A DNA stretch of 64,000 nucleotides from Escherichia coli. GTDB taxonomy: Bacteria > Pseudomonadota > Gammaproteobacteria > Enterobacterales > Enterobacteriaceae. Made by a program: the position numbers and the translations under genes. Of the stretch, positions 13,208-60,716 are shown piece after piece. The stretch lies in assembly GCF_013122565.1 (NCBI RefSeq), contig NZ_CP053258.1; one strand, given 5' to 3'. Numbering within the stretch: the stretch's first letter is position 1; each line of letters starts with the position of its first letter. The notes beneath the pieces were generated by a model that saw nothing but the letters and a program-made list of their open reading frames with translations, ran no database searches and was not told where the DNA came from.

Positions 13208-13223
13208 GCCAGCCTGAATGAGA

Positions 13224-13252
13224 AAAAGCCAACCTGCAGGTTGGCTTTTTTA
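13224..13252. terminator. Bidirectional rho-independent terminator between fur and chiQ
   Basis: Perfect hairpin agccaacc-tgca-ggttggct flanked by an A-run and a T-run. Confidence 0.85.
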
Positions 13253-57044: not shown

Positions 57045-58157
57045 ATGACGGATAATCCGAATAAAAAAACATTCTGGGATAAAGTCCATCTCGATCCCAC
57101 AATGCTGCTGATCTTACTGGCATTGCTGGTTTACAGCGCCCTGGTTATCTGGAGCGCCAGCGGTCAGGATATTGGCATGATGGAGCGTAAAATCGGCCAA
57201 ATCGCGATGGGTCTGGTCATCATGGTGGTGATGGCGCAAATTCCTCCACGCGTTTATGAAGGCTGGGCCCCCTATCTCTATATCATCTGTATTATTTTGC
57301 TGGTGGCGGTAGATGCTTTCGGTGCCATCTCTAAAGGCGCTCAACGCTGGCTGGACCTCGGTATTGTTCGTTTTCAGCCGTCGGAAATTGCCAAAATAGC
57401 CGTACCACTGATGGTTGCGCGCTTTATCAACCGCGACGTTTGCCCGCCATCGTTGAAGAACACTGGCATCGCGCTGGTGCTGATATTTATGCCCACGCTG
57501 CTGGTGGCTGCACAGCCTGACCTGGGAACATCAATCCTCGTTGCGCTTTCCGGTCTGTTTGTACTGTTCCTCTCTGGCCTTAGCTGGCGTCTGATTGGCG
57601 TCGCAGTAGTGCTGGTAGCGGCGTTCATTCCGATTCTGTGGTTCTTCCTGATGCATGATTACCAGCGCCAGCGCGTAATGATGCTCCTGGACCCGGAATC
57701 AGACCCACTCGGCGCGGGCTATCACATTATTCAGTCTAAAATTGCTATTGGCTCCGGCGGATTACGCGGCAAAGGCTGGCTGCATGGCACTCAGTCACAG
57801 CTTGAATTTCTACCCGAACGCCATACCGACTTTATCTTCGCGGTACTGGCGGAAGAGCTGGGATTAGTGGGCATTTTGATTCTGCTCGCTCTCTACATTC
57901 TGCTGATCATGCGCGGGCTGTGGATAGCCGCCAGAGCGCAAACCACCTTTGGTCGCGTCATGGCTGGCGGCTTAATGCTGATATTATTCGTTTATGTCTT
58001 CGTAAATATTGGTATGGTAAGCGGTATTCTGCCGGTTGTAGGGGTTCCGCTCCCACTGGTCAGTTATGGAGGATCGGCGCTAATTGTGCTGATGGCTGGG
58101 TTCGGGATTGTAATGTCAATCCACACCCACAGGAAAATGTTGTCGAAAAGCGTGTAA
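57045..58157 (+). CDS. mrdB: Peptidoglycan glycosyltransferase MrdB (RodA), SEDS family
   Basis: 370 aa polytopic membrane protein. Confidence 0.96.
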
Positions 58158-58167
58158 GAGGTGCGCA

Positions 58168-59256
58168 ATGCGTAAGCAGTGGCTCGGGATCTGCATCGCG
58201 GCAGGAATGCTCGCGGCATGTACAAGCGATGATGGTCAGCAACAGACGGTAAGTGTACCGCAGCCTGCGGTATGTAACGGCCCCATAGTTGAAATTAGCG
58301 GGGCGGACCCGCGTTTCGAACCACTGAACGCGACGGCAAATCAGGATTACCAGCGCGACGGTAAAAGCTACAAAATCGTGCAGGATCCGTCTCGATTTAG
58401 CCAGGCGGGACTGGCGGCAATCTATGATGCCGAACCCGGCAGTAACCTGACGGCCTCTGGCGAAGCTTTCGATCCGACACAGCTGACGGCGGCCCATCCA
58501 ACGCTTCCGATCCCCAGCTACGCCAGAATCACTAACCTGGCTAACGGGCGAATGATCGTGGTGCGCATTAATGATCGCGGTCCTTACGGCAACGACCGCG
58601 TTATTTCGCTTTCTCGCGCAGCAGCTGACCGTCTTAACACATCAAACAACACCAAAGTTCGTATCGATCCGATTATTGTCGCCCAGGATGGTTCGCTTTC
58701 TGGTCCTGGTATGGCTTGTACCACAGTCGCCAAACAGACTTACGCCCTGCCTGCACCTCCCGATTTAAGCGGCGGCGCAGGAACAAGTTCAGTGTCTGGC
58801 CCGCAGGGTGACATTCTTCCGGTCAGTAATTCGACGCTAAAAAGCGAAGATCCGACCGGCGCGCCGGTAACCAGCAGCGGTTTCCTCGGCGCACCAACGA
58901 CCTTAGCGCCTGGTGTTCTGGAAGGCAGCGAACCACCGCCTGCTCCACAGCCCGTTGTTACAGCTCCGTCGACAACGCCTGCAACCTCGCCTGCAATGGT
59001 GACACCGCAAGCCGCCTCGCAAAGCGCCAGCGGCAACTTTATGGTGCAAGTCGGGGCCGTTAGCGATCAGGCTCGTGCGCAACAGTACCAACAGCAACTG
59101 GGACAGAAGTTCGGCGTCCCCGGTCGCGTAACTCAAAATGGCGCGGTCTGGCGGATCCAGCTTGGCCCATTCGCCAGCAAAGCCGAAGCCAGTACCTTGC
59201 AGCAACGTTTGCAAACCGAAGCCCAATTACAGTCATTTATTACCACCGCGCAGTAG
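58168..59256 (+). CDS. rlpA: Septal ring lytic transglycosylase lipoprotein RlpA
   Basis: 362 aa; lipobox LAAC; DPBB domain and C-terminal SPOR domain. Confidence 0.94.
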   Translation: MRKQWLGICIAAGMLAACTSDDGQQQTVSVPQPAVCNGPIVEISGADPRFEPLNATANQDYQRDGKSYKIVQDPSRFSQAGLAAIYDAEPGSNLTASGEAFDPTQLTAAHPTLPIPSYARITNLANGRMIVVRINDRGPYGNDRVISLSRAAADRLNTSNNTKVRIDPIIVAQDGSLSGPGMACTTVAKQTYALPAPPDLSGGAGTSSVSGPQGDILPVSNSTLKSEDPTGAPVTSSGFLGAPTTLAPGVLEGSEPPPAPQPVVTAPSTTPATSPAMVTPQAASQSASGNFMVQVGAVSDQARAQQYQQQLGQKFGVPGRVTQNGAVWRIQLGPFASKAEASTLQQRLQTEAQLQSFITTAQ

Positions 59257-59261
59257 CGTAA

Positions 59262-59367
59262 AGCAGGCATCTGATGTGTCAATTTCTGTAAATGACGTTA
59301 ACAAAGTCACGCGGAAAGTCAGATGCCTGCCGGTAGTGCATTTGCTATAGTAGGGCACTTTTTTTAA
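59262..59367 (+). terminator. Inverted repeat plus hairpin/T-run between rlpA and dacA (probable rlpA terminator region)
   Basis: 12-bp inverted repeat gcaggcatctga (59263-59274) / tcagatgcctgc (59319-59330) with 44-nt spacer, then stem agtgc/gcact followed by ttttttt. Confidence 0.5.
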
Positions 59368-59395
59368 TTCCATCACGGATGTCGTAGTTCAGACC

Positions 59396-60607
59396 ATGAA
59401 TACCATTTTTTCCGCTCGTATCATGAAGCGCCTGGCGCTCACCACGGCTCTTTGCACAGCCTTTATCTCTGCTGCACATGCCGATGACCTGAATATCAAA
59501 ACTATGATCCCGGGTGTACCGCAGATCGACGCGGAGTCCTACATCCTGATTGACTATAACTCCGGCAAAGTGCTCGCCGAACAGAACGCAGATGTCCGCC
59601 GCGATCCTGCCAGCCTGACCAAAATGATGACCAGTTACGTTATCGGCCAGGCAATGAAAGCAGGTAAATTTAAAGAAACTGATTTAGTCACTATCGGCAA
59701 CGACGCATGGGCCACCGGTAACCCGGTGTTTAAAGGTTCTTCGCTGATGTTCCTCAAACCGGGCATGCAGGTTCCGGTTTCTCAGCTGATCCGCGGTATT
59801 AACCTGCAATCGGGTAACGATGCTTGTGTCGCCATGGCCGATTTTGCCGCTGGTAGCCAGGACGCTTTTGTTGGCTTGATGAACAGCTACGTTAACGCCC
59901 TGGGCCTGAAAAACACCCACTTCCAGACGGTACATGGTCTGGATGCTGATGGTCAGTACAGCTCCGCGCGCGATATGGCGCTGATCGGCCAGGCGTTGAT
60001 CCGTGACGTACCGAATGAATACTCGATCTATAAAGAAAAAGAATTTACGTTTAACGGTATTCGCCAGCTGAACCGTAACGGCCTGTTATGGGATAACAGC
60101 CTGAATGTCGACGGCATCAAAACCGGACACACTGACAAAGCAGGTTACAACCTTGTTGCTTCTGCGACTGAAGGCCAGATGCGCTTGATTTCTGCGGTGA
60201 TGGGCGGACGTACTTTTAAAGGCCGTGAAGCCGAAAGTAAAAAACTGTTAACCTGGGGCTTCCGTTTCTTCGAAACCGTTAACCCACTGAAAGTAGGTAA
60301 AGAGTTCGCCTCTGAACCGGTTTGGTTTGGTGATTCTGATCGCGCTTCGTTAGGGGTTGATAAAGACGTGTACCTGACCATTCCGCGTGGCCGCATGAAA
60401 GATCTGAAAGCCAGCTATGTGCTGAACAGCAGTGAATTGCATGCGCCGCTGCAAAAGAATCAGGTCGTCGGTACTATCAACTTCCAGCTTGATGGCAAAA
60501 CGATCGAACAACGCCCGCTGGTTGTACTGCAAGAAATCCCGGAAGGTAACTTCTTCGGCAAAATCATTGATTACATTAAATTAATGTTCCATCACTGGTT
60601 TGGTTAA
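59396..60607 (+). CDS. dacA: D-alanyl-D-alanine carboxypeptidase DacA (PBP5)
   Basis: 403 aa; signal peptide; SLTK, SGN and KTG motifs. Confidence 0.96.
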
Positions 60608-60657: not shown

Positions 60658-60692
60658 TAAAAAACTCCCGCCTTCTGGCGGGAGTTGCTATT
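60658..60692 (+). terminator. dacA terminator hairpin
   Basis: 9-bp stem actcccgcc / ggcgggagt with loop ttct, followed by a T-rich tract. Confidence 0.65.
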
Positions 60693-60716
60693 TAATTACG
60701 TTACGCCGGAGCTGAC

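Follow-up and report, generated by a model that had tools for sequence, protein, structure and literature searches.

A conserved RNA hairpin as the probable 3' end of Escherichia coli rlpA transcripts, on DNA shared with the dacA promoter

Introduction

How does the message of one gene end, and that of the next begin, when only 139 bp separate the two? The question is raised by the boundary between rlpA and dacA in a 64,000-nucleotide stretch of Escherichia coli DNA, which is referred to here as the window and in whose coordinates all positions are given. The genes mrdA (encoding MrdA), mrdB (MrdB/RodA), rlpA (RlpA), dacA (DacA, or PBP5), ybeD (YbeD) and lipB (LipB) follow one another in this order on its + strand. 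The rlpA ORF occupies 58168-59256 (+ strand), according to both the list of open reading frames and the RefSeq annotation of identical E. coli sequence, which also agree on its TAG stop codon at 59254..59256; the start codon of dacA lies at 59396. The junction is therefore an ordinary, but tightly packed, E. coli gene boundary, and RefSeq records no feature inside the spacer, including in K-12 MG1655.

An earlier note, based on the sequence alone, had drawn attention to a 12-bp inverted repeat in this spacer, followed by a short hairpin and a run of T, and had suggested either a structured 3' UTR of rlpA or a regulated attenuator of dacA. A literature search found no paper describing this inverted repeat as a hairpin, its overlap with the dacA promoter, or indeed any element of the E. 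coli rlpA-dacA spacer or any dacA promoter, and the ROSE and Cappable-seq supplements were without an entry when searched for the spacer. The Term-seq 3' ends and the dacA start site on which part of this analysis draws are already in public tables. Here these are combined with RNA folding and comparative analysis, locating the end of the rlpA message and the start of that for dacA (PBP5), and leading to the proposal that both signals use common DNA.

Results

The spacer region was found in 5,424 of 5,426 complete E. coli genomes, at a median of one copy and a maximum of two, and in nearly all cases E. coli chromosomes matched it at 99-100% identity. The sole difference between the spacers of K-12 and the window is a T-run of six rather than seven nucleotides, and published K-12 positions were converted to window coordinates through the K-12 annotation and an alignment of the two spacers. 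Comparisons beyond the species used 80 Enterobacterales loci collected through DacA, in all of which (80/80) a long ORF of the size of rlpA lies directly 5' of dacA. The main comparative set consisted of 49 Enterobacteriaceae spacers, and 32 more distant Enterobacterales spacers were considered apart.

The inverted repeat is exactly where the earlier note had placed it, with arms GCAGGCATCTGA (59263-59274) and TCAGATGCCTGC (59319-59330) that are 100% complementary and separated by 44 nt. Folding of the + strand RNA adds the pair U59275·G59318, resulting in a 13-bp outer stem (59263-59275 with 59318-59330) that, together with inner stems, forms a long irregular hairpin of 68 nt (59263..59330), hereafter hairpin 1. 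Within it, the fold contains an inner stem, UUUCUGU (59283-59289) with GCGGAAA (59311-59317), and a distal stem, UGAC (59293-59296) with GUCA (59306-59309); GTCA itself is repeated in the DNA at 59280, 59306 and 59318. Outside it, a weak extension spanning 59256..59339 pairs 59256-59260 with 59334-59335 and 59337-59339, placing the base of the hairpin beside the U-rich AUUUGCUAU in the E. coli fold. The + strand of the spacer, as a 145-nt segment, folds at -44.5 kcal/mol (z = -3.25 relative to shuffles), with the 87-nt hairpin 1 segment reaching -33.3 kcal/mol, whereas the reverse strand folds less well (z = -1.93).

Such a structure is rare in its surroundings, as perfect inverted repeats that are 12 bp or longer and enclose a loop of 3-60 nt number only two in the 64-kb window, against 0.16 expected, and the arm sequence of hairpin 1 occurs in it only once. 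The other perfect 12-bp repeat with a short loop, at 13223-13250 (AAAAAGCCAACC, 4-nt loop), looks like an ordinary terminator hairpin. An Rfam scan of the spacer at a permissive threshold returned nothing relevant, the best overlapping match being to a plant microRNA model (E = 7.6). Similarly, a generic scan neither called a dacA promoter nor classified either hairpin of the spacer as a terminator, because its criteria are too strict for long loops and for an extended -10 promoter with hexamer matches of 3/6 and 5/6.

Comparative analysis indicates that the pairing of hairpin 1 has been retained while its sequence changed. Hairpin 1 was present in the minimum free energy fold of all 49 Enterobacteriaceae spacers, across which the 3' arm is conserved as GTC(A/G)GATGCC and the 5' arm varies by genus. 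The arms of the same spacer pair at -24.5 kcal/mol, compared with -19.65±0.5 kcal/mol for swaps between species, and none of 10,000 permutations reached the value of the spacers' own arms, in a test that is independent of any fitted alignment yet ignores relatedness; shuffled 5' flanks combined with the 3' arms gave -10.9 kcal/mol.

As a plain MAFFT alignment left the 5' arm out of register, individual pairs were assessed in a covariance-model alignment of 44 sequences, assembled with a stricter cut-off that guards against weak reverse-strand self-matches of the palindrome. This alignment is fitted to the structure, and within it 85.5% of outer-stem cells were paired, compared with 28-38% when partners were slid by 1-3 columns, a control that favours a structure derived from the same sequences. 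Changes on both sides were observed in 7 of the 13 hairpin 1 pairs, involving 41 cells, with the clearest covarying pair being U-A in 23 sequences and C-G in 17. Out of 500 column shuffles, which likewise ignore relatedness, none matched the observed value for four of five measures, and two did so for the fifth (further pair types). Comparative support for the inner part (59283..59317) was weak or equivocal, with 68% of cells paired and one slid register almost equal to the true one; it includes the compensatory pair C59286-G59314, which is GC in 11 sequences and CG in 10. Cells with G·U outnumbered those with A·C by 49 to 13, and therefore it is the sense-strand RNA, rather than DNA or an antisense RNA, that is likely to be kept paired. 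Since the compensatory changes that the earlier note had named as its test are present across the Enterobacteriaceae, hairpin 1 is a real RNA hairpin, maintained by selection on base pairing.

The sequence 3' of the core stem also co-evolves with the 5' flank, with a spacer's own combination pairing at -6.19 kcal/mol and swapped combinations at -4.85±0.35 kcal/mol (2 of 10,000 permutations). In approximately half of the genera, as in E. coli, the resulting outer helix, which is genus-specific in sequence, brings the base of the stem to within 0-3 nt of a conserved TTTGC or TTTTGC. Enterobacter-type spacers have no outer extension, leaving 9-12 unpaired nt between the hairpin and UUUGC. A small hairpin in these Enterobacter-type sequences, TATAGC/GCTATA, was considered and dropped, as it did not covary.

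The most invariant block of the spacer lies just beyond hairpin 1, and corresponds to the extended -10 element of a dacA promoter, TGcTATAGT (59343..59351, + strand), identified from its conservation and from the start site. Spacer positions T90, G91 and T93-T98 were invariant in 49/49 spacers, and the pattern TGnTAT..T recurred in 29 of the 32 distant Enterobacterales spacers, in 28 cases with a distance of 43-48 nt to the ATG. The dacA start site maps to 59357 on the + strand (K-12 664001, minus strand), 6 nt past the -10 hexamer, in the SMRT-Cappable-seq data (supplementary files 3 and 4 of Yan et al. 2018, PMC6131387), in which capped 5'-triphosphate long reads assign this start to both dacA and dacA-ybeD-lipB transcripts. 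A prediction made beforehand from the sequence had given 59357-59358. Taken together, the -10 element and the start site put the -35 position at ATGCCT (59323..59328, + strand), across a 17-bp promoter spacer. This hexamer matches the consensus at 3/6 positions only, and the region sits inside the 3' arm of hairpin 1, where GATGCC is invariant or nearly so in the 49 spacers.

Relative to the dacA start, the right arm and loop of hairpin 1 lie at -95..-27. The loop, at about -75 to -40, is highly conserved as TGTAA..TTAACAAAGTCA..AAAGTC, with a wider pattern of TGTCA…TGTAA-N7-TTAACAAAGTCA…AAAGTC over 59280-59321, and this conserved sequence falls at about -77 to -36 of the promoter. The 3' (right) arm, with a summed column entropy of 4.97 bits, is far more constrained than the 5' (left) arm, with 13.05 bits, as would be expected if it had a second job in the promoter. 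From these patterns of variation the free 5' arm appears to adapt to a fixed 3' arm, with G·U pairs as frequent intermediates. For dacA, the 3' arm and loop may serve as a -35 or upstream element, or as the site of an activator. No known factor site could be fitted by eye to the loop, and none of the CRP, CpxR, ArcA, sigma-E, sigma-32 or sigma-54 motifs, again judged by eye, fits either the loop or the 3' arm. A second promoter within the loop, using TTGTCA as its -35 hexamer, was also dropped by eye, there being no usable -10 element.

The start site defines a dacA 5' UTR of 39 nt (59357..59395, + strand; CCATCACGGATGTCGT...) that is nearly invariant across the 49 Enterobacteriaceae spacers and lacks a canonical Shine-Dalgarno sequence at normal spacing to the dacA ATG. 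A tiny ORF in this leader, ATG-TCG-TAG, was rejected because its ATG is ACG in Citrobacter.

In the more distant genera, most spacers have some hairpin after rlpA, and most keep the promoter core. A long hairpin closing over the -35 region is also found in Erwinia, Mixta, Serratia and some Pantoea, whereas in Rahnella, Yersinia, Edwardsiella and one of two Hafnia species rlpA is followed immediately by a compact or canonical GC-rich terminator. Individual loci with a compact GC-rich stem followed by U, such as ACGGGGCTGCGGCCCCGTT, are those numbered L072, L075, L078 (Rahnella), L076, L070, L062, L081 and L083 in our set, and these same loci retain the promoter core TGCTATAGT and the leader. 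Some Pantoea-type spacers (e.g. L064, L067 and L074) have weak folds only. Across genera, these spacers are consistent with a constant requirement for a hairpin that ends rlpA, followed by a dacA promoter.

The second structure described by the earlier note, a short terminator-like hairpin with a T-run, exists in the DNA as described, but it is not supported as a terminator. This hairpin 2 (59335..59359, + strand, from A59335 to U59359) abuts seven T at 59359..59365 (+ strand). However, its core is the invariant TGcTATAGT, and the dacA start at 59357 lies inside it; hence the T-run belongs to the first bases of the dacA mRNA, at positions +3 to +9. Therefore the mRNA of dacA itself cannot form hairpin 2, which can fold in read-through RNA only. 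Hairpin 2 is weak, at -6.2 kcal/mol, and an equivalent abutting the T-run was found in only 6 of 49 species. It displays no covariation, as it was equalled by 206 and 354 of 500 shuffles, and two of its outer pairs are disrupted, in 41 and 33 of the 49 species respectively, such that its high percentage of pairing is attributable to sequence invariance alone. Furthermore, the Term-seq data list no curated 3' end in or after the T-run (K-12 6639xx) in any of three conditions (PMC7815308). Hairpin 2 is thus not supported as a functional structure, and straddles the -10 element and +1.

The T-run itself varies in length, with seven T in the window, six in K-12 and ATCC 8739, and from approximately five up to eight in other genera, where interruptions occur at times; Serratia, Yersinia and Erwinia still keep the run T-rich to differing extents. 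It is tempting to speculate that it acts as a U-rich translation enhancer or through slippage at initiation. The idea of a regulated attenuator finds no support for the transcripts that dacA initiates itself, as these start 3' of hairpin 1, and is loosely possible only in the sense of a leaky stop for rlpA transcripts. The features of an attenuator or structured leader of dacA are correspondingly lacking: hairpin 1 is 5' of the dacA start and is carried only by transcripts from rlpA, no Rfam family matches, and the competing hairpin 2 is unconserved.

Published 3' ends place the end of rlpA RNA next to hairpin 1. In Supplementary file 1 of the Term-seq study of Adams et al. (2021, PMC7815308), 3' ends are listed at K-12 664018 and 664017 on the minus strand, in two conditions, with 664018 being seen in LB at OD600 0.4; both are classed there as 'orphan' only. 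These convert to 59340..59341 on the + strand, 10-11 nt past the core stem and 1-2 nt past the extended stem, and as they are 5' of the dacA start, they must belong to RNA arriving from rlpA. This, with the covariation of the arms across the Enterobacteriaceae, upholds the suggestion of a structured 3' UTR of rlpA. For the opposite strand, the same table has a 3' end at 59257 (- strand; K-12 664101, plus strand), also in two conditions and 6 nt beyond hairpin 1, and therefore an antisense transcript appears to traverse the spacer and stop at hairpin 1. The sense end has counts of 41,794-91,306 and the antisense end of 1,166-1,788, each approximately 1.4-4 times the lowest value listed for its strand in the portion of the table covered, and as these lowest values are approximately 23,469 for the minus strand and 850 for the plus strand, the two strands are not comparable (PMC7815308). 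Supplementary file 2 of the same study lists no Rho-dependent region near K-12 6638-6641xx. A 47-aa reverse ORF at 59233-59376 is probably a spurious annotation.

The core stem of hairpin 1 is followed by CGGUAGUGCA, with no U-tract directly after it, and the U-rich AUUUGCUAU adjoins only the weak outer extension, which is absent in many genera. The SMRT-Cappable-seq data contain no rlpA-only transcript ending at hairpin 1; instead, the sole transcript containing rlpA is rlpA-dacA-ybeD, which starts at K-12 665332, inside mrdB, and runs into ybeD (Yan et al. 2018, PMC6131387). With this read-through transcript on record, any stop at hairpin 1 has to be leaky. The 665332 start corresponds to window position 58026, in the 3' part of mrdB, and TGgTATGGT (58010-58018), 5' of it, resembles an extended -10 element. 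Further downstream, the dacA-ybeD spacer contains a canonical terminator at 60660-60693, CTCCCGCC-TTCT-GGCGGGAG followed by TTGCTATTT, right after which lies a published dacA transcript end (K-12 662669, approximately window position 60690); weak Rfam matches at 60663-60686 are to the terminator portion of unrelated models.

Discussion

With these observations, the 139-bp spacer, which is found in nearly all E. coli genomes without annotated features, can be given a concrete and well-supported annotation. The explanation considered probable is that hairpin 1 is a structure of the sense RNA that defines the 3' end of rlpA transcripts, mostly as a barrier to exonucleases, and that the same DNA forms the dacA promoter. 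RNA polymerase arriving from rlpA would transcribe hairpin 1, with the steady-state RNAs ending 10-11 nt later, at 59340/59341. Most likely, we infer, the main action of hairpin 1 is to block 3'-to-5' exonucleases, such that RNAs terminated or cleaved beyond it would be shortened until the hairpin is reached, while some direct, inefficient termination might occur at the U-rich AUUUGCUAU. Some transcripts pass hairpin 1 and continue into dacA and ybeD. In the DNA, the 3' arm would lie over the -35 region, and the loop over the region 5' of it, of a promoter from which dacA is transcribed starting at 59357. An exonuclease barrier is favoured because a stem without a U-tract, with a 3' end nearby, matches the signature of such ends described by Dar and Sorek (2018).

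The rival explanations differ in which part of the spacer they treat as functional, and in which molecule. Hairpin 1 might instead be an intrinsic terminator, with its base at 59339 and followed by the U-rich AUUUGCUAUAGU, which would double as the extended -10 element of dacA, polymerase being released there and the RNA then nibbled to 59340/41. The hairpin is strong, the outer helix, with its co-evolving tail, comes close to the TTTGC or TTTTGC in approximately half of the genera as well as in E. coli, and no Rho-dependent region is listed at the site in the Term-seq tables (PMC7815308); yet the core stem leads into CGGUAGUGCA rather than a U-tract, the gap before UUUGC in Enterobacter-type spacers is unpaired over 9-12 nt, the mapped end is 1-2 nt past the extended stem and outside any U-tract, and read-through transcripts exist (PMC6131387). 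This reading is regarded as rather unlikely. Assigning the stop to hairpin 2 and the T-run, as an rlpA terminator or a dacA attenuator to which hairpin 1 is accessory, is improbable. The T-run is long and conserved, hairpin 2 abuts it in E. coli, and termination at the T-run could be followed by trimming back to hairpin 1, but the weakness of hairpin 2, its equivalents in just 6 of 49 species, its lack of covariation and its broken outer pairs all argue otherwise, as does its sequence, which is that of an invariant -10 element with a start site inside, and no end at K-12 6639xx appears in the Term-seq listing (PMC7815308).

It is highly improbable that the inverted repeat functions purely as DNA, whether as a protein-binding site in the form of a bipartite palindrome or as part of the architecture of the dacA promoter, with the RNA fold being incidental. 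The right arm and loop are indeed conserved beyond the needs of pairing, and lie at -95..-27 of the dacA start. However, the arms change in concert across lineages, with differing sequences and shifting registers, which fits base pairing rather than the binding of a protein to one constant motif; the predominance of G·U cells over A·C cells (49 to 13) is a property of the RNA strand specifically; and RNA ends adjoin the stem on both strands in the Term-seq data (PMC7815308). Alternatively, hairpin 1 could be the body of a small stable RNA, either a fragment of the rlpA 3' UTR or an antisense RNA of approximately 80 nt running from near the dacA promoter to 59257. This is very doubtful, despite the conserved loop, the discrete 3' ends on both strands in the Term-seq table (PMC7815308), and an opposite-strand ORF in CFT073, c0723, described as 'upstream of dacA' and transcribed in vitro: a 5' end is known for neither strand's species, there is no Rfam match and no mention was found in the literature search, and the Term-seq counts exceed by no more than a few-fold the smallest count given for the respective strand in the portion of the table covered (PMC7815308).

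A regulatory extension of the exonuclease-barrier explanation, in which hairpin 1 is a leaky stop controlled by a protein or sRNA at the conserved loop, or in which the excised hairpin or its antisense partner is a small regulatory RNA, has a slim chance of being correct. Were the stop regulated, the factor involved would set the flow from mrdAB-rlpA, the elongasome operon, into dacA-ybeD, coupling PBP5 levels to the elongation genes. The double use of the 3' arm, which serves as the -35 region of dacA too, would then couple termination and initiation physically.

The sharing of DNA between the two signals has practical consequences. Deletions or insertions in rlpA that remove 59263-59340 also alter the dacA promoter, which affects the interpretation of both rlpA and dacA phenotypes. 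For scans based on sequence only, the locus is a caution that a hairpin and T-run upstream of a gene may be a promoter core and the initial transcribed sequence. It also exemplifies dual coding, in that promoter function holds one side of an RNA helix fixed and the opposite arm follows it by compensatory change. Hence the main value of the locus is as a tidy example of dual-use sequence, and of a promoter mimicking a terminator.

This arrangement shares features with several known systems without being identical to any. Dar and Sorek (2018, Nucleic Acids Research, PMC6061677) describe stem-loops lacking a U-tract, with 3' ends just downstream, as the signature of ends protected from PNPase and RNase II, and hairpin 1 resembles this class in being stable, having no adjacent U-run, and having a precise steady-state 3' end a few nt downstream. 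Members of that class would be expected to have upstream transcripts terminated by Rho, with bicyclomycin-sensitive read-through; no Rho region is listed near hairpin 1 in the Term-seq tables. Hairpin 1 differs in its unusual length (68 nt) and in its 3' arm being the promoter DNA of the next gene.

Similarities to terminators are also apparent. Hairpin 1 contains GC pairs, lies at a gene end, and has RNA 3' ends on both strands, resembling intrinsic terminators, bidirectional ones included; unlike canonical intrinsic terminators, it has no U-tract directly (0-2 nt) after the stem, and is leaky. Its 3' ends, 10-11 nt past the core stem and 1-2 nt past the extended stem, compare with ends inside the U-tract at approximately 7-9 nt in such terminators. 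Bidirectional terminators exist in E. coli. As an intergenic palindrome at the end of an mRNA, hairpin 1 is similar to the mRNA-stabilising REP/BIME and ERIC elements. An origin as one of these repeats was rejected, as hairpin 1 is single-copy, with a median of one and at most two per E. coli genome and a unique arm in the window, and its sequence is presumably unlike the REP or ERIC consensus.

In leaving a leaky stop between co-oriented, functionally related genes, with a promoter nearby, the locus resembles the intercistronic partial terminators and attenuators of operons, of which rplJL-rpoBC is an example, although hairpin 1 has no sign of regulation, alternative structures, a ligand, a leader peptide or an Rfam match. 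The dacA promoter is similar to the extended -10 (TGn) promoters of the sigma-70 type, with its invariant TGcTATAGT, a mapped start 6 nt beyond this element and a -35 hexamer of poor match. A C just before the -10 hexamer favours use of sigma-S, and dacA has a C immediately before its hexamer. As a promoter it is unusual only in being embedded in the structured 3' portion of the transcript from the preceding gene. Overall, hairpin 1 behaves in the manner of a protective 3' stem-loop or of a leaky terminator, with an extended -10 promoter joined to it.
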